A stretch of 41,644 nt of DNA from a virus (taxonomy: Duplodnaviria; Heunggongvirae; Uroviricota; Caudoviricetes): IMG/VR virus record IMGVR_UViG_2617271072_000007; one strand, written 5' to 3'. The position numbers and the translations under genes were made by a program. The notes beneath the pieces were generated by a model. That model was not told where the DNA came from. It made no database searches and saw only the letters and a program-made list of their open reading frames with translations. Below, one piece after another: positions 5,148 to 38,183 of the stretch; positions within the stretch are counted from its first letter, which is position 1, and each line of letters starts with the position of its first letter.

Positions 5148-5501
5148 TACGCCTCCGATGTAACAGTCGTTATTCCATAAAGAGTGTCGATTTCAGCGGA
5201 AAACATGACACGTCGGGTCGTGGTATCCACCGTCGTATTGAAAGAGAGGATTGATTTAACGCCCTGCGTTTCCAGAATGCGCTTACGGATCGCCAGGTTG
5301 TAGGTTTCCGGCTTCTGCCTGCCCAGCACGGACTGGATCCATGGAGTCCCTTCGGTGGTGTCGAGAAACCATTGCCCATACCACAATTCGAATCGCGTTT
5401 TTTACCGCCTGCGCCACGGCCTCCGGTGAGTTAATCAGCCAGGTGTCATCACCGCTGCCAAAGGTGTAATCACCATCGGCGTCTTCACGTCTGTATCGCA
5501 T
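5147..5501 (-). CDS. baseplate wedge protein (gp25/W-like); frame broken by a 1-nt indel
   Basis: ORFs 5283..5501 and 5147..5386 join into one protein if the A6 run (plus T6 at about 5398-5403) is A5. Confidence 0.6.
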
Positions 5502-24054: not shown

Positions 24055-24396
24055 TTATCTTACCTTGATGCCTGATGCCGTCAGATGTTTACGACAGTCC
24101 TGAATACCTTCGTTATAACCCGCATCGTAGAAGCTATCCGGCTTTGCCTTCAGCGCAGGAAGCGTCACGCTGGTAGCTCTTCGTTCGGCCAGAACACCTG
24201 CCTGAAAGAGTGTCCACATCAACTGAACTGCTGAATCACAGTAAGTAACATCTTCACTGTACAATTCTCGTTCAATCCTGATGCCAAGTTGAGCCTTCAT
24301 TGATGCGCCAATATTACCTTTGACCTGCAACGACAGGTCTGGGTACCTCTGTTCCATGAAGCTTTCAAATCTGTTGCGAACGCTGATCAGAGCCAT
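24055..24396 (-). CDS. hypothetical protein between Q and the lysis cassette
   Basis: 113 aa, RBS AAGGGAAC, starts about 30 nt after the Q stop. Confidence 0.5.
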   Translation of the reverse strand: MALISVRNRFESFMEQRYPDLSLQVKGNIGASMKAQLGIRIERELYSEDVTYCDSAVQLMWTLFQAGVLAERRATSVTLPALKAKPDSFYDAGYNEGIQDCRKHLTASGIKVR

Positions 24397-24427
24397 CTGG
24401 TTCCCTTACGTGATTGATTGCTGGATA

Positions 24428-24851
24428 TTATGCCGCCGAGCAGCTCCTACGCAAAGTCCTGATAGCCTGAGGCTTTGACTGAACCGACTGATCCATTTCG
24501 AGCACCACATCCAGCATGGCTAAGCAACCGTCAATAAATCCCTCTGCCGCCTGAAGCCTCTTCAGAACGTGGGTGTGAGATACGCCGAGCTTCTCACCCA
24601 TCGCCCGCACGGGCATGGCCTGGACGTAATGCCACTCAAGGAGCGTGCACAGATACGGATCTTTTTTTCTTCAGGCAGCTCATAGCGGAGTTGATGATAA
24701 GACCGTCATTGTCACTGCATTTCAGCCTTCCAGACTGCGTCGCGGGTAGCAGATTCTTAAACCCGGCTGCAACAGGAGGAAAGTAGACGCTACCACCTTC
24801 ACTCGCTGCCCAGCCCCCCCAGCGCTCTAAAACCTGTTGAATATTACGCAT
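24428..24851 (-). CDS. late-gene antiterminator Q (phage 82 / QuuD-like); frame broken by a 1-nt indel
   Basis: MRNIQQVLERWGGWAA ... KRLQAAEGFIDGCLAMLDVVLEMD; two ORFs join if the A7 run (plus T7 about 24662-24668) is A6. Confidence 0.75.
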
Positions 24852-24980
24852 AGCTCTGACCTCTACGTTTTGCTACGAAAAAAAATTTTCTGAGAACTAC
24901 GTCTGTTTATCCGTGGGTGGGATAACGCAGTTCCGATTCGCTTATTACACGCTGTTATGTGCAAAAAATTCCTTGTTCGG

Positions 24981-25154
24981 CCTGTACCAACCTGTACCCA
25001 CCTGTACCAGCTCTTTTCAAACCTTTTCCCCAAGCGACTTATATATATATATGGGGTTCTTAGTAATTAGGTTGGTACAGATGGTACAGTTGGTACTGGC
25101 CTTTAAATTCAATTAGTTAAAATGTACCAACCTCTATTTTGAGGTTGGTACAGG
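24981..25154. repeat. iteron-type replication origin candidate
   Basis: Three tandem 10-bp repeats CCTGTACC(A/C)(A/C/G), a (TA)n tract near 25040-25052, then at least four more copies of the TGTACCAAC core in both orientations. Confidence 0.6.
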
Positions 25155-27327
25155 TTGGGACACCGCCTCAAAAATTCGAGTCATTTTCCCCCCAATTCGC
25201 CTTTGGGCACGCTTATACCCGCAATTTTGCAAAACATTACTAATTCGCATTTCTTCGCGTTTTCCGATGCGGTCAGGATTTAGCCCAATCGCATCACGCA
25301 AAACATCACTTGCGCGTAAAAATTCGCAATTTCGCGGAAGTTCATTAGTCATCAGGTCTGGCGTGTCGAGCCATTTCTCTACCGTTTCAAGCCAAGCATC
25401 CTTGATGGTGTACTGTTCATGGACACTCGCTGCCAGTTGTTCAGCCTCACGGAACTGGATACCCCCCAGACGCTGAAACACCTCACGAGCCTCAGCCCAA
25501 AGTAAAAGGAGATCTCTTTTTATCGCTTTCACGTCGACTTTCGACACTTCCACGGGGAGCCAGCGACGGTTACCAGTCTTGTCCGCAAGGAATTCGTCCT
25601 CATTGGTGGTACCAACGAACACCAGGCGACGAGGAAACTGGGTGGCGAACTCCCGGTATTTCGGGATCCAGTTTTCGTGAGTACGCGTCACAAACGCTTT
25701 GATTGACTCCAGCTCTTTGGTATTAAGTCCGCGCAGTTCACCAATCTCTGCCACCAGCCGACCACGCATTTTTTCGAGCGAGATCATCGTCTTTTTCGGC
25801 AAAAGAGATTTCAGTAAAAAACGCAGGATCAGGGCTCAGTGCCTCCACTCCGGAAGACTTACCGCAGCCCTGCGGACCAACGAGGATCGGCACCATATCC
25901 GCTTTGATGCCTGGCTCCAGTACTCGCCCCGCCAACGCGGTCCACATGAACATAGACACCGCACGGGTATAAGGCGTGTCGGCGGTACCGAAGTGCGTAT
26001 GGTAGAAACATTCGATGCGCGGCACGCCATCCCACTCCAGTCCGTTCAGCCAGGTGATCGCTGAATCGAATGGTTGTTCATCGGCTGCAAGTAACACCAC
26101 ATCGCGAATAAGTTCACGACCAACAGGTTTAAATCCCCGCTTTTCCATCGTGATGCGCAGGCGCGCATAATCCGCATCGGTGAATGCCCGCCATTGTCCG
26201 GATCCTGCAGGGGCAAACATGATTTCGTCGCGGAACTGGTCAAAGCGAATATCGATGTCCACAAAATCAGGGCGTACTACTGCTTTGGCTGCGTTGCTGA
26301 TGGTTGCCTCGATACGCCCCCATTTATCACGCTCGAAAGCAGGCAGCGGTAAAGGTTCCGCCACTTCGATGCTGGTCAGATCTTCGAAATCGTCGTTGCG
26401 GATCCCGATGGCATTCAGGAAATCTCCGTCATCACGATGCGCGCAACTGGCATGCAGGCATTTAAAATGCCCCTGCTCAAAGCCTGCGGTTCCCGCAGGA
26501 AAATAAACTGTGCTTGTTGGATCGCCTCCGCTACTGTGGCCGTCTTCAAACGGACAGCGGATATATCGTTCACCGTTTGCGCCATCCAGCAGCGTCCAGC
26601 CATTGGCATCAAGATATTCAGCTGTATCATCCGTCGCGCCGGGCGTGAATGCTGAACGGTCGCGCATCTTCGTGTTGCCCGCTTCGGTGGTTACCGACAC
26701 AGGGAGTTGTTCAGCCAGGCGCTGCCACAGCGTTTCAAGCTGCTCACCTGTAATAGCCGGAGGTTCATCCGGCAAACCACCGTCCCATTCAATACGCGCG
26801 CCGCTGCTGTGCGTACCACAGGCAACGAACTGCTGCCCGTTCGCCAGCAACTCGATAATGCCCATATCCCCCGCCAGGCGATGGATACGCTTACGGAAAT
26901 CACCATCAACGGCCAGCAGATACAGACACTTATTACTGTTTGCTCGCCAGCGTCGCGGCGGCGACTCACCCAGAAGTTGCACAAGTGTTTTGCGAATATC
27001 TGCCTGAATGTCTTCATCTTCGCTATCGCAGTCCAGCGCCAGCCAGCCATGGCCTGTACGCACGCAGATGCCATAATCCGGTTCATTCGACCAGCGGGCA
27101 AAATCATGCTCAGTAACAACATGCCCGGTCCATTGAGCAATACCGGTGACCTGGCGGTCCCGGTTATAGCGACTCGGCGTCTTACCCAACGCTTTCAATT
27201 TACTATCAGGGGATATGGTCGCACTGGGGTTACATACAACTGGGAGAAGATGAGCAGTCCGCCCCAATACCAGGTCGAAATGAAACCACTCATCAGGCGT
27301 AGCGCCCCATGGTTTGCTATCGGACAT
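25134..27327 (-). CDS. replication primase-helicase (prim-pol N-terminus, VirE/D5-type NTPase C-terminus); frame broken by a 1-nt indel
   Basis: Walker A GPQGCGKSS, Walker B-like VFVGTTNEDE; ORFs 25738..27327 and 25134..25802 join at plus T5 about 25792-25796. Confidence 0.85.
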
Positions 27328-27330
27328 GGG

Positions 27331-27531
27331 TTACACCTTTTGTCTAGCTGTCACTTCCTGAAAAAGTTTTTCTATCGCACGTACTGTAGAAAAGCGAGGG
27401 TCAGAATGAACCCCGGTAAGAAGCCGACTAATAGAAGACTGCTTCACGCCTGCAATTTCGGCAATTTGGTTTTGGGTATACCCTGAATCAATCAAGCTTT
27501 TGACCATCTCTTGTGGTGTTAGTCCGGACAT
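27331..27531 (-). CDS. cro: Cro-like HTH regulator
   Basis: 66 aa HTH (QNQIAEIAGVKQSSISRL), divergent from the repressor, RBS GGAGA. Confidence 0.75.
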   Translation of the reverse strand: MSGLTPQEMVKSLIDSGYTQNQIAEIAGVKQSSISRLLTGVHSDPRFSTVRAIEKLFQEVTARQKV

Positions 27532-27672: not shown

Positions 27673-28348
27673 ATGATTGATACTACCGATATCCTTTCTC
27701 AAAACATCAAGTACCTGATGGACAAAGCCAAGATAAGCTCGATAACTGAGCTGGCACGTCGGTTACAGCTGAACCAACCAACGCTACACAGGCTGGTATC
27801 AGGAGAGGTGAAAGATCCGAAATACGCAACGTTAAAGCAGATCGCCAACTACTTCCACGTGTCACCAATAGACTTGGCAGAAAGGAGCCTTCAAGAAATG
27901 GAGAAAGAGGACGCGACAGGTATAAAAAACGTATATTTCTCTTAGGTTTAATAAAGTACCTGTTTTGGGAAACACTCAGCTAGGCGTTGGAGGACTTTGG
28001 AGCGACACCCAATATTCAGTAGGTAGCAGTGATGGTTTCATATACTGGCCGACAAAGGATGAAGATGCATACGCCCTGAAATGTGTTGGTGATTCAATGA
28101 TGCCTAGAATCAAAGAGGGGGAGTTCGTAATCGTCGAACCCAACCACGACTACACTCCTGGTGATGAAGTACTTGTGGTTACCCGGGACGGTGAGGTCAT
28201 GGTGAAAACCTTCTTGTTCGAACGCGATGGCCTGTTCCATCTAATGTCTGTAAATGAAGATCATCCACCAGTCAGAGTACCACGCGAAAACATTGAAAAA
28301 ATCCATTACGTGGCGGGGATCGCCAAATCCGCGCTACGTATGTACTAA
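27673..28348 (+). CDS. cI: CI-type repressor (HTH plus S24 LexA-like peptidase); frame broken by a 1-nt indel
   Basis: HTH in 27673..27945, GDSMMP peptidase motif in 27965..28348; frames join at the A6 run about 27924-27929. Confidence 0.85.
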
Positions 28349-30556: not shown

Positions 30557-31858
30557 ATGCCAGACGTTCATGCACGACTTTCCCCGTCATCGGCGCATCG
30601 ATGGATGCGCTGCCCAGGAAGTCTGGCGCTGGAGGCCACACAACCGGATAAAGAAACAACTTTTGCAATCGAGGGCACTGCAGCGCACGCGCTTGCTGAA
30701 AAAGTTCTACGAAACAGGCAAAGCCACCCGGAACACTACGCCGGATGCAATGTTTCTATGTTTCTCGGCTCATACCCCCTTCGCGAAAATCCTGATGATA
30801 CATCTGGCCCACAGGTGGATGATGAAATGGTCGAAGCCGTTGGCCGGTATGTTGATACGGTCTGGACTCTTGCACAGAATAATGAACTATTGGTTGAACA
30901 ACGTGTTGATTTCTCACATATAACGGGTGTGGAAGAATCTTTCGGAACTGCCGACGGCATAATCATCGCGGGTAACGAATTACAAATCCACGACCTGAAA
31001 TATGGCAAAGGCGTCCGCATTGATGCAGAACAAAATGAGCAACTACAACTGTATGCTCTGGGTGCGCTCGAACAATTCAGCATGCTGTATGACTTTGAGA
31101 CTGTAAGATTATTTATTCACCAGCCAAGGCTCAACCACGTTTCAGAATGGTCGTTAACCGTACAGGAACTTCAGTCTTTCGGTGAACGGGCACTGGAGGC
31201 CGCAACCAGTGCGATCCTTGTTCTCAATATTGCTGAATGCGAAGGCATTGAGACACTACCGCTGGAAAACTTCATACCTGGAGAAAAACAGTGCCGCTTC
31301 TGTAAAGCAAAAGCTATTTGCACTGCCCAGAAAATGCAGCATTTACAAACAGCGGCCAGCGACTTTGAAGATCTGACAAAGCCTGTCAGCGAAATAATCA
31401 CCAATGCCAGCGCACGTGTACCTCTGTTAACCATTGAGCAGCTTGCGGAGATCTATAGCCAGGCCGACTTTATTGAATCCTGGCTAAAGGCAGTACGGGA
31501 CCGGGTTCATAATGAACTCAATGCCGGACATCCGGTACCGGGGTTTAAACTGGTAACAGGAAAACAAGGTAACCGGGCCTGGAGTGATGAAGAGGCAGCT
31601 CGCGCACTTCTGAAGGACCAGTTCAGGTACAAAACTGAAGAAGTATTCGACTTTAAACTTATTAGTCCCACAAAAGCCGAAAAACTTATCAAAAAGGCCA
31701 GTCCGCGCCGTTGGTCAAAAGTCGAGGCACTGATAACACGAGCTGATGGTAAACCCACCGTCGTTCCCGAGTCAGACCCACGCCCCGCACTCAATATCAA
31801 CCCTGTAAATGATTTCGACGACGTATCCGACGATACGCTAACCGCAGACCTCATCTGA
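30557..31858 (+). CDS. PD-(D/E)xK nuclease, DUF2800 / Cas4-like
   Basis: 433 aa; ADGIII ... IHDLKYGK nuclease motif and Cys cluster [10 protein letters not shown]. Confidence 0.7.
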
Positions 31859-31873
31859 TTTAAGGAAATACCC

Positions 31874-32422
31874 ATGAAACTGAAGCTGAACAATGTTCGT
31901 CTGGCCTTCCCGTCTCTGTTTGAAGCTAAAACTGTAAACGGCGAAGGCGATCCGCGTTTCTCCGCAGTATTTTTAATGTCTCCCAAACACCCACAACTGG
32001 AAGAAATCCGTAAAGCTATGAAGCAGGTAGCGAAGGAAAAATGGGGGGAGAAGTGGGAGTCCATTTATAACCAGCTGGAGAAAAAACTCAATCTGTGCCT
32101 GCATGATGGTGATGAAAAAGCAGAGTATGAAGGCTTTCCCGGCAATTTCTTCCTGAACGCTGCTAACAAAGCGCGCCCAGCTGTTCTTGATCGCGATCGT
32201 TCGCCACTAATTCAGGCTGATGGACGTCCCTATGCAGGGTGCTATGTAAACGCCGTTATCGATATCTGGGCACAGGACAATAATTTCGGTAAACGCATTA
32301 ATGCCTCACTCGGCGGAGTCCAGTTCCTGCGAGACGGCGATGCATTCGCTGGCGGCGGAGTGGCAAGCGCTGACGATTTCGACGATATCAGCGAAGGCGC
32401 TGATGCTGAAGCACTAATTTAA
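31874..32422 (+). CDS. DUF2815-like protein (ssDNA-binding-type partner of DUF2800)
   Basis: 182 aa, N-terminus MKLKLNNVRLAFPSLFEAK, acidic C-terminus. Confidence 0.65.
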   Translation: MKLKLNNVRLAFPSLFEAKTVNGEGDPRFSAVFLMSPKHPQLEEIRKAMKQVAKEKWGEKWESIYNQLEKKLNLCLHDGDEKAEYEGFPGNFFLNAANKARPAVLDRDRSPLIQADGRPYAGCYVNAVIDIWAQDNNFGKRINASLGGVQFLRDGDAFAGGGVASADDFDDISEGADAEALI

Positions 32423-32474: not shown

Positions 32475-33116
32475 ATGTCACAGCCCGTATTAACTAATCA
32501 CCTTAAAACTCAAATCATCAATAACGCACTTGAGAAAGCGGGTATTCCCAAACGTAAATCAGCACTACGAGCTACTCGTGTTGAATGGGCCGAACGTGTT
32601 CGGCTTGCAGCTATCGGGGGCGTAGAGAAAGAAGCTGAAATATTAAAAAATATAAAAAGATTGAATCCATGGTCACAAAAATCCTCTGATTCATTAAAAA
32701 CCAATAGTTCTTTAATTCGAAAAGATTGCTGCATATATCTCAATCTGGCTGGAGCCAGAGCAAACATTTATTTCAATGGCAACTACAGAGGTTATGAATC
32801 AGGAGCCCCCGAGCATATTAATAAAATAGCACCTGCAGAATTTACTCTACTTGGCGAAGATCCTCTGGTAACGGAGTTTTATAGCTTTGATGCTCTCTAC
32901 ACACAAATTAAAAGTGATGAAACCGAAATCATACAGAACGTCAGCGCGGCTCTAAATAAAGTTCGGACAGTAAAACGATTACTGGATGTATGGCCCGAAG
33001 CTAAAGAACTGCTTCCAACAGACGCACCGCCAGTCCCTTTAGCACCAGCAGTACATCGAGAGACATTAAATGAAATGATAGGCCTTCCTACCAATACAGT
33101 GTCTGATACTCAATAA
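32475..33116 (+). CDS. hypothetical protein, AT-rich
   Basis: 213 aa from MSQPVLT with RBS GAGGGA; track ORF 32445..33116 starts at an upstream GTG. Confidence 0.5.
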   Translation: MSQPVLTNHLKTQIINNALEKAGIPKRKSALRATRVEWAERVRLAAIGGVEKEAEILKNIKRLNPWSQKSSDSLKTNSSLIRKDCCIYLNLAGARANIYFNGNYRGYESGAPEHINKIAPAEFTLLGEDPLVTEFYSFDALYTQIKSDETEIIQNVSAALNKVRTVKRLLDVWPEAKELLPTDAPPVPLAPAVHRETLNEMIGLPTNTVSDTQ

Positions 33117-33799
33117 CAAGGGGGATGCTTATTATATGATTTTGAACGTTTTACAATCTCGTTAAGAGGCGTGAAATCAAAATCTCTGAATAACACATCA
33201 GGATACTTCGCTCTTGCTTTATCCAGCAGACCAGTTAAAGTATTTTTTGTGTTACCCAACATTGTATTAACCGCCACTACATGTCTAATTTCTGGAGGTT
33301 TATCTATACCACCAGAAATTGCTTCATTAAGAACCGACGCCAGTGGGGTTTGTCCCTTACTTGTTGAATCCCACAGCGTCATTAACAGACGAGCTGCGTC
33401 TATAAATAGCTTTTTGTCAGCATTTGGCTTGACAGTAATACCAGAACTACCTGAGCCAGAACCGGAACGTTCTATTGCTGCACTGGTATCCGATTTCATA
33501 GGATTAAATAACGGCAGCTCTGTACAACCGATACGCCGAATGAAATCCTTTGCAACATCTCTACCACAGAAAAAAGCCCCTGTACAATTTTCATCAGAGC
33601 GTTTTTTAAATGAAAAACAATAGTACTGATCGGTTAACGGATAACCGGAATAACTGGTTTTAGTTTGTCCAGTAATAAGTTTCAGGTGTGCAACAGGCTG
33701 AATAATAAAATCCCGAACTATCGCATCTTTTATGTCGTTACCACGGTGACAATAATATTCAGGTAATCCATTAGGCTGTCTCTTATTACCCACAGTCAT
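33110..33799 (-). CDS. hypothetical two-domain protein, AT-rich, antisense to the operon
   Basis: 229 aa; Cys/His-rich N-domain, SGSGSGSSG linker, C-domain; convergent 7-nt overlap with the preceding gene. Confidence 0.55.
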   Translation of the reverse strand: MTVGNKRQPNGLPEYYCHRGNDIKDAIVRDFIIQPVAHLKLITGQTKTSYSGYPLTDQYYCFSFKKRSDENCTGAFFCGRDVAKDFIRRIGCTELPLFNPMKSDTSAAIERSGSGSGSSGITVKPNADKKLFIDAARLLMTLWDSTSKGQTPLASVLNEAISGGIDKPPEIRHVVAVNTMLGNTKNTLTGLLDKARAKYPDVLFRDFDFTPLNEIVKRSKSYNKHPPCY

Positions 33800-33860: not shown

Positions 33861-35924
33861 ATGTCCAATATACTATGGGGCGACCTGGAAACCTATTGTG
33901 ACATTCCGATCAACAACGGTACCCATGCGTATGCCGAAGGCGTTGAAGTGATGCTTTTCGCATGGGCTATCAACGACGGGCCAGTAAACGTGTGGGATAT
34001 CACTGCCGGTGGTGGTATTCCACACGGCTTATACGAAGCAATCGCAGACCCTGAAACCCTGCTTTATTTCCATAACTCTCACTTCGACCGCACCGTTCTG
34101 CGTTATGCAATGCCGCGACTGGCACCGCCAGTCGAACGTTGGCGCGACACGATGGTGCAGGCGCTGGCGCACGGTCTCCCGGGGTCTCTGGGGGAACTCT
34201 GCGAAGTACTAGGCGTCCCGCAAGACAAAGCGAAGGACAAAGAAGGTAAAGCGCTGATCCAGCTGTTCTGTAAGCCACGCCCGAAAAACAGCAAACTGCG
34301 TCGGGCCACCAGTAAAACCCACCCGGAAGAATGGCGGCGCTTTGTTGCTTACGCCGGACTGGATATCGAGGCAATGCGCGAAGTCTATAAACGTCTGCCG
34401 AAGTGGAATTATCAGGGGACAGAACTGGCGCTCTGGCATCGTGATCAGCAGATCAATGACCGGGGCGTCTGCATGGACATGCAACTCGCACGCGCTGCGA
34501 TCGAAGCGGTAGACCAGGAACAAAAGCGCCTGGCAAAGCGTACACAGGAAATGACTGATGGCGAAGTGCAGGCAGCCACACAACGAGACACGTTGATTAA
34601 GCACATTGTTGAATCCTACGGTGTGGAGCTACCAGACATGCAACGCAGTACTCTGGAACGTCGTATTGCCGACCCCGATTTACCATCTGCCGTGAAAGAA
34701 CTGCTGGCTATCCGACTGCAGGCCAGTACTACCAGCACCAGTAAATACAAGGCACTGATGAAAGGCGTAAGCCACGACGGGCGCTTACGCGGTACGCTAC
34801 AGTTCTGCGGGGCGTCACGTACCGGTCGTTGGGCCGGACGGCTATTCCAGCCCCAGAATCTTCCCCGCCCTTCACTAAAACAGGAACAAATAGACGAAGG
34901 CATCGAAGCACTGAAAGCCGGATGTGCAGACCTGCTGTTTGACAATATCATGGAACTAACCAGTTCAGCGTTACGTGGCTGCATTATCGCGCCAACAGGC
35001 AAAAAACTGGTGGTAAGTGACTTGTCGAACATTGAAGGCCGTATGCTGGCATGGCTGGCAGGAGAAGAATGGAAACTGAATGCATTCAGAGAGTACGACG
35101 CCGGAACGGGTTCGGACTTATATAAACTGGCGTATGCAAAAGCTTTCGATATTGCACCAGATGATGTTGATAAACACATGCGTCAGATCGGTAAAGTCAT
35201 GGAGCTCGGTCTGGGTTATGGTGGTGGTGTATCGGCTTTCATCACTTTTGCGCTGGTTTACGGTCTCGATCTCGACGAGCTGGCGAACGCCGCACTGCCA
35301 AACATTCCCCGCGATGTTATCCGCGAGGCGAAAAGCTGGTACGACGAATCGGTTAAACGCAAGTCAACCTACGGGCTTTCTGAACGGGTATTTATCGCCT
35401 GCGACTCACTTAAACGTCTCTGGCGCAGGGCGCACCCGGCGACCTGCGATTTCTGGTACGAACTGGAGCGCACCGTCCGCACAGCAATCGCCACACCGCA
35501 AAAAACATTGTATTGCGGCTATCTTAAAATCCGACGTGATGGCGCGTGGCTGCGCATACAGCTACCATCCGGACGCGCTGTATGCTACCCGTCTCCGGTT
35601 ATCGAAAAAGGGAATATCACCTACATGGGTGTTAACTCTTATTCGCGTAAATGGCAACGACTCAAAACCTACGGCGGAAAGCTGGTGGAGAACGTCACCC
35701 AGGCAGCCGCCCGCGACGTTCTGGCCGGAAACATGCCGCTTATCGAAGATGCCGGTTACAGCATTGTGTTGACGGTACACGACGAGGTGATCACCGAAGC
35801 ACCTGACACAGAAGATTTCAACGATAAAGCGCTTTCCGCGCTTCTCTCCACTAACCCCGAATGGGCACCCGATATTCCGCTGAATGCTGGCGGCTTTGAG
35901 GCGTACCACTACCGTAAGGAGTAA
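33861..35924 (+). CDS. family-A DNA polymerase with 3'-5' exonuclease domain
   Basis: 687 aa; DLETY exonuclease motif, [11 protein letters not shown] (motif A), [12 protein letters not shown] (motif B), VHDEV (motif C). Confidence 0.9.
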
Positions 35925-35931
35925 TACAAAG

Positions 35932-36960
35932 TCACTTAAAATCCCTAGATAACATCTGCGAAGCAGCTGATGCTGTATAAACTCCAGTATGTTTTATTTC
36001 TGCAGCTATTTTGTAGCCATCCTCCTTAAACTGCGTAAGCATTGAGCTTAAGGAACCAAGTTTTTTAGTATTCAACACCATTCTAACGACAGTTCCTTCA
36101 TGATAATGACCTAACTCTATATGCTTCTTTCCGTGTTCATCTAGATATATTGCATGGTCACCGCTACAAATAAGAAAACTACCGCCAAGTTTACATATAC
36201 GGCTGATCATATAAAGGCCAAATCCCGAATTATGCCAAGGATTTCTTGTATTGATTCTCGCCCCCTTAAAATTTTTACTAGAAATAGATGGCATTAACGC
36301 TAACTGAATGGCTTCAGAATCATTATCAGCTTCTATATAAGGGTTCTTCGATAGAGATTTTTTCATTCCTATACCATTATCAGAAATTGTTATTTCAACA
36401 CGGTCATAAGAAGGCCAATACTGTGCACAATATTCAATCACCTTTGAATCACTATGTTCCACAACATTACGCATAATTTCCCTAATAGAAAATGTCAAAG
36501 CATCAATGAGGTCGCCTTCTTCTTGGCGAGCAAGAATCTTTGCTAATTTACCAGATCGTTCCTCAACTATCTCTTGCACCTCAGTATATTTATCGTTAGC
36601 TTCATCTATAACTGTTTGAACACGAAGAATTGTAAATGGAACAAAATTATTATTTCCATCTGTACATCCCGGTTCACGGCCATGCTTTAACCCGAAGGCT
36701 CGAAAGAATGCCATATTTGCGGCATAATCCTTATTCTCATGCCCGCTACAAAAAAGTTTAAAACCATCAATGTTCTTTTTCTGTTTTCGATGGAAGTCTC
36801 GAATATGCTTAGCAACATAAACCATTGTAAATGGTTCAATCCTTCCCATATGCGAAAAATCGATTGTTATTTGCTGTTGACCTGAATGTTTTTCAATTTC
36901 ATTGCAAAAATTAAATATCTTTTCAGGATTACATGAAGAGGGAAATAAGATTCGTGACAT
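35932..36960 (-). CDS. GHKL-type (histidine-kinase-like) ATPase with unknown N-terminal domain; cargo gene
   Basis: 342 aa; N-box NVVEHSDS, G1 DNGIGM, G2 GFGLYM; AT-rich; opposite strand to the operon. Confidence 0.65.
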   Translation of the reverse strand: MSRILFPSSCNPEKIFNFCNEIEKHSGQQQITIDFSHMGRIEPFTMVYVAKHIRDFHRKQKKNIDGFKLFCSGHENKDYAANMAFFRAFGLKHGREPGCTDGNNNFVPFTILRVQTVIDEANDKYTEVQEIVEERSGKLAKILARQEEGDLIDALTFSIREIMRNVVEHSDSKVIEYCAQYWPSYDRVEITISDNGIGMKKSLSKNPYIEADNDSEAIQLALMPSISSKNFKGARINTRNPWHNSGFGLYMISRICKLGGSFLICSGDHAIYLDEHGKKHIELGHYHEGTVVRMVLNTKKLGSLSSMLTQFKEDGYKIAAEIKHTGVYTASAASQMLSRDFK

Positions 36961-37308: not shown

Positions 37309-37320
37309 AAGACTTATGCT

Positions 37321-37905
37321 TTAATCCGTATTTTTAACACGTGTTTCGAAACACTCTTTTAATTTAGCTATTTCCTTTTTAGAGGACATAACTGTGAATT
37401 TCATCCCTTTTAAATCATTAACAAATTCAAATTTTGCGCTATTGGACTCACAATCACCAACAACAAAACCACTACCAAATGAATTGAGCAACACTTTAGT
37501 ATTACTACCATCTACCATATAATATTCGTTATTTTTAAATGCAGTAACCTTCCCGAAGGTATAGCTCAATATCAATAATGTCATCACCCCTAAAGGAAAA
37601 GCTGATTTTAGGATTTTTAAATCGATATAATAAAATACGTCTTTATACTCTGCAAGCCTCCCAAACTTTCTAATGCTATCCATATGATGTTCGTGTCTCT
37701 TACTATGGATTGACGCGGACACCGCATTGTGGTAATTCAACAAAAGCAGAGCAAATAATAAAATATCTCCAACACTCATCACAGAGGTTTCGGAGAAATA
37801 ACCAAAAGGCCAATGAAATCCTATTATGTAAAAATTAGGTATTAGCATAACCACTATAAATATAATAAATGGAACATAATATTTCCCTTTCAAATCAAAC
37901 ATCAA
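37321..37905 (-). CDS. membrane protein, AT-rich cargo
   Basis: 194 aa; three N-terminal hydrophobic helices plus about 80-aa soluble domain; likely ATG at 37902. Confidence 0.6.
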   Translation of the reverse strand: MMFDLKGKYYVPFIIFIVVMLIPNFYIIGFHWPFGYFSETSVMSVGDILLFALLLLNYHNAVSASIHSKRHEHHMDSIRKFGRLAEYKDVFYYIDLKILKSAFPLGVMTLLILSYTFGKVTAFKNNEYYMVDGSNTKVLLNSFGSGFVVGDCESNSAKFEFVNDLKGMKFTVMSSKKEIAKLKECFETRVKNTD

Positions 37906-38183
37906 TGTCGCGTATAAGGCACCGAGAAATAAAAACTAAAAAACAAAAGCCATACAGCCGAATACAATAGCGTATTTAAATCTATTTTAATAAAAAAGGG
38001 CTGGATAGCCATAATACGATGCAACACCTTTCTGAAAAGAATATGCCATCGCATAAGCTAAACGCTGAAAAAACAGTTAATAAAGAAACTTGTTTTGTAA
38101 GTATTTTTGCCAGGGGCATACCCGCCTCCGTTAGTTATATATATAGAGAGAGAATTGACACATATTCTACCATAGGTGTATTA

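Follow-up and report, generated by a model that had tools for sequence, protein, structure and literature searches.

The replicons of SaPI and PICI elements (SaPI1, SaPIbov1, SaPI5 with its PriRep5, and E. coli EcCICFT073) form the Pri-Rep-ori class and depend on a self-loading helicase of the VapE/D5-like kind. SaPI Reps recognize iterons through a C-terminal winged helix; 6 to 12 iterons are found immediately downstream of rep, and the origins consist of an AT-rich center flanked on both sides by two or more iterons, which face in opposite directions (PMC9371898; the iteron-origin layout of SaPI/PICI is also treated in PMC6092414). These Reps bind and melt their origin independently of ATP and load themselves onto it, probably as two hexamers (PMC9371898). 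The alpha protein of P4 likewise unites a primase, an SF3 helicase, and a C-terminal winged helix, which binds iterons, in one polypeptide, its primase being of the DnaG type and its helicase of the D5_N/COG3378 type (PMC2777425). The P4 iterons occur in both orientations beside AT-rich DNA, and P4 needs a second, distant cis site, crr. The type I iteron of P4 is TGTTCACC.

Lambdoid phages exist in several ori-O types (lambda, phi80, and 82), in which the DNA-binding segment of the initiator and the iterons co-vary as a cassette among mosaic relatives. Lambdoid iterons overlap the coding sequence of the initiator itself; in lambda, they occupy a central part of the O gene and are the target of the N-terminal domain of O, a protein that is neither a helicase nor a primase and that recruits host DnaB through P. 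Lastly, ORF904 of the archaeal plasmid pRN1 has the domain order Prim-Pol, SF3 helicase, winged helix, and an essential cis region is located 3' of the replication gene (PMC2777425, PMC4234260), with no iterons discernible in pRN1 (PMC2777425).

Here, we analyzed a repeat array in a stretch of 41,644 nucleotides of phage DNA, hereafter called the window. A preliminary description of the window had pointed to a likely origin resembling that of P4. Its first part is supported by the conservation of the array and by its co-variation with the wing of the initiator, whereas for the second part the Pri-Rep-ori organization of SaPI/PICI fits better. From the sequence comparisons and a structure model presented below, we estimate at about 85% the probability that the array is the vegetative origin of a temperate E. 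coli myophage and is recognized by the winged helix of the phage's own initiator.

Genomic context of the array

The genes around the array are as follows.

24428 to 24851, minus strand: antiterminator Q, given as context and outside the origin; split by a homopolymer insertion at 24662
25134 to 27327, minus strand: Prim-Pol/VapE (D5-like SF3) primase-helicase, the proposed initiator (PF09250 and PF05272)
27331 to 27531, minus strand: cro-like HTH gene
27673 to 28348, plus strand: cI-like repressor

The window is 99.9% identical to a prophage located beside yfhL/shoB in E. coli MINF_2E, the record of which is annotated with structural, lysis, and replication genes that make up a complete myovirus set. 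The replication genes of this prophage encode DUF2800 and DUF2815 proteins, a family-A DNA polymerase, a VRR-NUC protein, and a DEAD/DEAH helicase. The element encodes terminase, portal, capsid, sheath, tube, and baseplate proteins along with lysis genes and a DNA polymerase, and no homologues of O or P are encoded here. Judged by its gene content, the element is a full temperate prophage and not a satellite island, and it shares only the type of replicon with PICI/SaPI.

Over positions 5398 to 38060, the window differs from the MINF_2E prophage by 5 substitutions and by 21 indels (22 bases), which affect A or T runs in 20 cases and a G run in one (for example, those at 24662, 24878-24879, 24918, 25769, and 27924). 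The initiator gene is split in the window by a 1-nucleotide homopolymer insertion at 25769 and is intact (730 amino acids [aa]) in MINF_2E; relative to the same prophage, cI is frameshifted at 27924 and Q at 24662, and further genes are split by the indels as well. Since the indels sit in homopolymers, the frameshifts in the initiator, Q, and cI genes probably stem from errors in sequencing or assembly rather than from decay into real pseudogenes. Were the initiator frameshift real, the copy of the origin in the window would be without its cognate initiator in cis.

The initiator gene and Q are separated by a gap of 282 bp. A promoter scan of positions 24300 to 25700 found no sigma-70-like promoter, and because none is predicted for Q, this gene must depend on transcripts that run through the array. 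Between the array and the start of Q, positions 24907 to 24925 form a perfect 6-bp inverted repeat, TTATCC-N7-GGATAA, which is conserved in close E. coli relatives and of which each half resembles a half-site of a DnaA box (TTATCCACA). This repeat could be the site of a host factor or of a regulator. In 39 of 72 related loci (L004 to L076), the array is followed by a gene for a 91-aa HTH protein (MPVVATFKTDWFRVINDITRSGIPLQEIA...) that takes the place of Q, which suggests an alternative late-gene regulator in the Q slot.

Nine iterons at the 3' end of the proposed initiator gene

Reading of the sequence and a repeat finder gave a unit of 9 to 10 nucleotides resembling TTGGTACAGG, present in nine copies between 24981 and 25164. 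The array is organized as follows.

24981 to 25010, minus strand: left iteron triplet, three copies of the TTGGTACAGG type with an exact spacing of 10 bp
25011 to 25071, no strand assigned: central core, AACCTTTTCCCCAAGCGAC-TATATATATATAT-GGGGTTCTTAGTAA, the proposed DNA-unwinding element
25072 to 25099, plus strand: right iteron triplet, in opposite orientation and with a spacing of 9 bp, facing the left triplet across the core
25100 to 25120, no strand assigned: second AT-rich spacer (CCTTTAAATTCAATTAGTTAA), 21 bp
25121 to 25164, no strand assigned: third iteron cluster, an inverted pair and a degenerate copy

The left triplet reads CCTGTACCAA / CCTGTACCCA / CCTGTACCAG, and its copies fit CCTGTACC(A/C)(A/G). 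They start at 24981, 24991, and 25001, in agreement with the three perfectly spaced tandem 10-mers of the preliminary description. The copies of the right triplet occupy 25072-25081, 25081-25090, and 25090-25099, in a 9-bp phase. In the third cluster, the inverted pair is formed by 25121-25130 (minus strand) and 25145-25154 (plus strand, a perfect copy) and can fold into a 12-bp hairpin with arms at 25123-25134 and 25141-25152; the degenerate copy, TTGGGACACC, is located at 25155-25164 in the same orientation as the perfect one. The (TA)n tract and the further copies in both orientations announced after the left triplet were also found, although the count of at least four such copies, seven or more in all, was slightly too low. 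Similarly, the array was given the correct start, but its end belongs at 25164 and not at 25154.

The array was said to overlap the 3' end of the primase-helicase gene and to be followed by Q, and this holds: the third cluster spans the initiator stop codon (25134-25136) together with the final 10 initiator codons, and Q starts at 24851 on the minus strand. Because the stop codon is in the loop region of the hairpin, these last 10 codons are written in iteron DNA, which encodes the tail VSQPVPTSK and the stop.

We compared the array with the background of the window. When up to 2 mismatches were allowed, TTGGTACAGG matched 8 times inside 24981-25154 versus 33 times in the remainder of the window (∼41.4 kb; both strands counted). 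At the background rate of the window, ∼0.13 matches are expected by chance per 175-bp stretch, and the motif density of the array (8 in 175 bp) is ∼60-fold the background. For the exact 8-mer GGTACAGG, we counted 6 occurrences in the window versus 0.44 expected, and 4 of the 6 are in the array.

Related loci share the layout and differ in iteron type

Relatives were retrieved with the conserved 23-nucleotide core as the search pattern. This search yielded 73 viral contigs and 3 species-representative genomes (Pluralibacter, Trabulsiella, and Pectobacterium), i.e., 76 loci, every one of which has three iterons, the core, three iterons, the spacer, and one plus two iterons directly 3' of the same gene. 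Three more diverged relatives, namely, Yersinia phage YeP4 and the metagenomic loci L079 and L080, also carry an array directly 3' of the initiator gene. YeP4 is a mitomycin-inducible podovirus with a 73.6% identical initiator; its central sequence is different, and 3 + 3 + (1+2) iterons of sequence GGTTGTCTAG surround TA-rich DNA. L079 and L080 behave like YeP4. Since these three relatives keep the layout, the architecture is independent of the bait. Neither an origin nor iterons are mentioned in the YeP4 paper. The preliminary description had held that an absence of the repeats from relatives with the same initiator would speak against an origin, and the opposite was seen, as the 76 loci and the 3 diverged relatives all carry the array.

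A match was present in 139 of 5,426 complete E. coli genomes, and relatives were found in Yersinia, Pectobacterium, Trabulsiella, Pluralibacter, and Arsenophonus. Loci L081, L082, and L083 are decayed copies, with fragmented initiator genes and a partial array (the hairpin only or one triplet). In the Arsenophonus locus (L082), a triplet of three GGTTGTCTTG copies encodes the QDNQDNQDN tail of a 75-aa remnant ORF.

In the E. coli prophages 22KM0354 and Rb-50, the flanks and the TA core are identical to those of the window and every iteron copy is replaced, with GGTTCCA in the place of GGTACAG. Their initiators are 98% identical to that of MINF_2E over 714 residues, and only the last ∼15 residues differ. 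We distinguished nine iteron types: GGTACA, GGGACA, GGTTCC (the commonest), GGTTAC, GGATAC (mixed with GGTTAC), GGTAAC, GGTCTA, TGTCT, and GGCTAC. Within a locus, all 5 to 10 copies are of one type, showing that the copies switch in concert, and the aligned types have the form (G/T)-TGG, three to four variable nucleotides, then A(G). Five loci (L044, L049, L051, L053, and L064) have hybrid arrays: GGATAC predominates in the outer triplets, GGTTAC is found in the middle left copy and in the hairpin cluster, and the initiator carries the wing VLKVW. These arrays may be intermediates in a shift of specificity; alternatively, reading of the T/A position may be loose.

Phage vB_EcoM-611R5 shares Q and the Prim-Pol half of the initiator and has a helicase half of the DUF5906 type. 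Its cro/Q context is the same, and the position downstream of the initiator gene is occupied by an unrelated array with ∼10 GGTGAC/GTCACC repeats and several TATATATA tracts (L078, 3600-3900), which is presumably the origin of that phage. As the array of vB_EcoM-611R5 differs along with the helicase half, we conclude that the array travels with the initiator and not with the neighboring genes.

Given the hairpin of the third cluster, the array could instead act mainly at the level of RNA or transcription, with an intrinsic terminator or an attenuator separating the initiator gene from Q. On the coding (minus) strand, positions 25152 to 25123 form a 12-bp stem with a 6-nucleotide loop, after which comes UUUUAAC; this was the only terminator-like match of the region, and a 76-nucleotide segment folds strongly (-26.7 kcal/mol, z of -4.6). 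However, the T-tract is absent from the commonest type, GGTTCC, and from GGTCTA, no Rfam family was matched, and RNA pairing accounts neither for tandem direct copies that change together nor for the co-variation with a protein strand that is described below. We consider it improbable that this is the main function of the array; a secondary attenuator role beside the origin is possible.

The central core as a candidate unwinding element

The 61-bp central core contains a 13-nucleotide alternating TA tract, TATATATATATAT, at 25040-25052. It is nearly invariant among all iteron types; 23 of its nucleotides served as bait and are conserved by construction, and the flanks outside the bait, AACCTTTCCC and TTAGTAA, are likewise conserved. 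With respect to duplex stability, the core is among the least stable 0.25 to 0.4% of the window. Within the array, stability is lowest in the 20 bp that start at 25103 (99.9th percentile of the window), and the second AT-rich spacer is not conserved in the GGTTCC and GGTCTA types. The minimum of the window is located elsewhere, at ∼37.5 to 38.2 kb. Since the center of the array is not this minimum, duplex stability backs the assignment as an origin without deciding it.

The position of the minimum would also suit a scheme in which binding of the initiator to the iterons serves autoregulation or copy control only, in a handcuffing-like manner, and replication starts elsewhere; initiators that bind plasmid iterons commonly autoregulate. 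We rate this scheme as slightly less probable still than a terminator. Across the 41.6 kb of the window, with its early, lysis, and structural genes, there is no second iteron cluster; matches outside the array are isolated and at the background rate. Moreover, opposed triplets around a conserved TA-tract core match the experimentally proven origins of SaPI/PICI, and the AT-rich islands elsewhere correspond to reverse-oriented accessory genes.

These AT-rich accessory genes, at ∼35921-36949 and 37310-38107, lie among the replication genes and include the least stable duplex of the window. They correspond to 31327-32355 and 32716-33513 (minus strand) of locus L001. One encodes a GHKL/HATPase_c ATPase with a weak PADLOC match to DrmA, and the other is without a family. 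Prophage 22KM0354 lacks them or has other sequences in their place, which makes it conceivable that they are moron or defense cargo.

Domains of the predicted initiator

In the initiator, Pfam searches identified an N-terminal PF09250 Prim-Pol domain and, in the same polypeptide, PF05272 (VapE) with an E value of 4.5e-60; no TOPRIM/DnaG domain was matched in this protein. The closest solved homologue is the SaPI Rep helicase (PDB 7PDS), which was the only PDB match in sequence and profile searches (phmmer E value of 1e-33 over residues 393-657). The P4 alpha origin-binding domain, 1KA8, was not recovered by the sequence and profile searches of the PDB, so no link to P4 can be claimed at the sequence level.

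The C-terminal part of the initiator was modeled, and two features of its gene are relevant here.

25137 to 25400, minus strand: C-terminal winged-helix domain, aa 643 to 730, covered by the 88-aa model
25164 to 25217, minus strand: codons of the wing beta-hairpin, Y704 to A721, which share mutual information with iteron type

The homologue search returned mostly short fragments of close relatives, resulting in shallow alignments. An earlier model of the C-terminal 142 aa, based on an alignment of 13 sequences, was discarded, as its pLDDT of 55 was too low for use. The 88-residue model of aa 643-730 (20 sequences) reached a pLDDT of 85.2 and a pTM of 0.72. It shows helices at 2-11, 30-38, and 47-59 followed by a beta-hairpin at 62-69/72-79, a topology typical of a winged helix, and Foldseek matches to it were weak, with E values above 0.01. 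Residues 715 and 716 of the initiator correspond to residues 73 and 74 of the model, at the start of the second wing strand and beside the tip of the hairpin. The presumed recognition helix (KREEMRISNVLQNCG) is essentially invariant.

Iteron type co-varies with the wing of the proposed initiator

The initiator (∼730 aa) is almost invariant except for its last ∼23 residues. Among 50 full-length initiators, ∼707 residues have a column entropy of ∼0.0 to 0.45 bits, and higher values are confined to the extreme C terminus. Of the 2.59 bits of information on iteron type, the first and second residues after the invariant G713-K714 account for 2.07 and 2.34 bits, respectively, and Q708 for 1.26 bits. 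The codons of the second wing strand (K714-A721) are at 25164-25187, and those of M715 and T716, the residues correlated with specificity, at 25179-25184. When the five residues after G713-K714 were considered together, they mapped one to one to iteron type in 76 of 76 loci, the variants of the strand being MTRIF, KMRIF, K[CSR]K[VLI]W, VQRVW, VLKVW, [LS]MKVW, QIRVW, and QQRVF. The neighboring octapeptide of the first strand is shuffled between types, KRVQRRVD occurring with four of them and KRAQRRIG with two, which indicates that recombination reaches right up to G713-K714.

The association with iteron type was also followed along the DNA. On the Q side, it falls to background exactly at the left edge of the array, despite the high polymorphism of that flank. 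Toward the initiator, it remains high for ∼55 nucleotides past the last iteron (to ∼25219) and is then zero. The co-varying wing codons are only ∼15 to 50 nucleotides from the nearest iteron, and physical linkage contributes to the association between wing and iterons in a way that is not fully separable from selection.

For more distant homologues, we predicted the pairings before looking at the arrays. The strand MTRIW predicted GGTACA, and GGGTACAG/TGGTACGG were observed; KAKVW predicted a GGTTCC-like core, and a hairpin with GGTGGTTCC was observed, in line with the predictions. In two cases the agreement was partial: KCKV predicted GGTTCC, and three copies of CTGGAA[T/A/C] were found, and QQRVY predicted GTTGTCTAG, and GTTGTCA[T/C] was found. 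The Pluralibacter locus (L084), with iterons GGCTAC/GGCTTC, represents the ninth type and has MT followed by KAW. A code of two residues is therefore too simple, as MT goes with GGCTAC when KAW follows; the complete strand, MTKAW, is still unique to its type.

We also considered other binding partners for the iterons. Cro and CI were candidates because the first two relatives also differed in the immunity region, and they were rejected, since the alleles of cro, of cI, and of the downstream gene (Q or the 91-aa HTH protein) assort independently of iteron type. Indeed, the commonest cro allele (26 loci) is found with seven iteron types, and so is the commonest cI allele. Q was rejected because identical Q proteins occur with GGTACA and GGTTCC arrays, and the other replication proteins because two prophages with different iterons are 99.2% identical from DUF2800 through the DNA polymerase. 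Within the sequences compared, the C-terminal wing of the initiator is the only feature that co-varies with iteron sequence; cro, cI, and Q do not. The least probable alternative, in which the repeats are not an origin but operators for Cro, CI, Q, or another HTH regulator of Q and the late genes, would suit the position of the array between the early operon and Q, the differing cro/cI genes of the first pair compared, and the reliance of Q on read-through across the array, but it can be dismissed given this exclusive tracking by the wing, the allele and Q pairings listed above, and the absence of the iteron motif from the cI-cro intergenic region.

Discussion

The initiator and its array agree with the Pri-Rep-ori class in every sequence-level criterion. 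As in SaPI/PICI, the helicase is a homologous, presumably self-loading one of the VapE/D5-like kind, a C-terminal winged helix is predicted in the initiator, nine iterons, within the range of 6 to 12, are located at the 3' end of the rep gene and begin inside its last 10 codons, and three minus-strand and three plus-strand copies flank an AT-rich center with a TA-tract core. The primase is fused to Rep as in SaPI5, and the paired variants of initiator and array probably correspond to the matched specificity variants of Rep and ori in SaPI/PICI. In contrast to these islands, the host element is a complete 35- to 40-kb temperate phage with a polymerase module and structural genes. The iterons measure 9 to 10 bp instead of 5 to 6 bp, the third cluster overlaps the end of the gene, and the central core is conserved in sequence and not merely AT-rich. 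Furthermore, the presumed variation in specificity is confined to ∼5 to 10 wing residues of a near-identical protein.

The phage resembles P4 in having primase, SF3 helicase, and C-terminal winged helix in one polypeptide and iterons in both orientations beside AT-rich DNA. The closer comparison with P4 ori/crr proposed at the outset fits less well, since the primase is an AEP Prim-Pol and the helicase a VapE protein, unlike those of P4 alpha, and the window contains no crr-like second site; the iteron sequences are also unrelated. The matched variants of initiator and iterons recall the O/ori specificity types of lambdoid phages, which differ from this phage in having O and P. The order of the three domains and the location of the cis region 3' of the replication gene are also those of pRN1, an archaeal plasmid without detectable close sequence relationship.

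We infer that the initiator binds, melts, loads itself, and fires at the array. A single polypeptide, with an AEP Prim-Pol primase at its N terminus, a VapE/D5-like SF3 helicase in its center, and a winged helix at its C terminus, would recognize the 9- to 10-bp iterons through the last of these domains. The invariant part of the iterons (TGG ... AG) would probably be read by the invariant recognition helix and the 3 to 4 variable central base pairs by the start of the second wing strand (M715-T716-R-I-F in this phage); this division between helix and wing is a reasonable inference from the alignments and the model. The opposed triplets may position initiator hexamers on both sides of the TA-tract core, which would melt and let the helicase load itself; Prim-Pol would then prime, and the family-A polymerase module of the phage would extend. 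It is also conceivable, if speculative, that occupancy by the initiator modulates read-through into Q, because the origin lies in the transcript path from cro through the initiator gene to Q and ends in a terminator-like iteron hairpin.

More tentatively, at somewhat below even odds, the five residues of the wing strand may be the main determinant of the 3 to 4 central base pairs that are read. The nine paired strands (MTRIF, KMRIF, KCKVW, VQRVW, VLKVW, LMKVW, QIRVW, QQRVF, and MTKAW) would then define at least nine mutually orthogonal origin-initiator pairs. If so, they would amount to a wing-based code for DNA recognition, with a natural set of pairs on an otherwise identical 700-aa scaffold.

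The class of the origin is already known and will not surprise a specialist; the interesting addition, and the useful part of this work, is the comparative series of paired wing and iteron variants, in which 98% identical initiators differ essentially only in a five-residue beta-strand and each comes with a fully switched array. This series is a ready-made minimal system to study how the wing of a winged helix reads bases, and it could yield orthogonal replicon pairs. For a widespread and unstudied group of temperate phages of Enterobacterales, our analysis places the replication origin and the determinant of its recognition, at the strength given above. If the wing strand does set specificity, its diversification may stop co-resident or superinfecting relatives, or satellites, from firing each other's origins, which opens the question of whether origin specificity diversifies under competition between related prophages.
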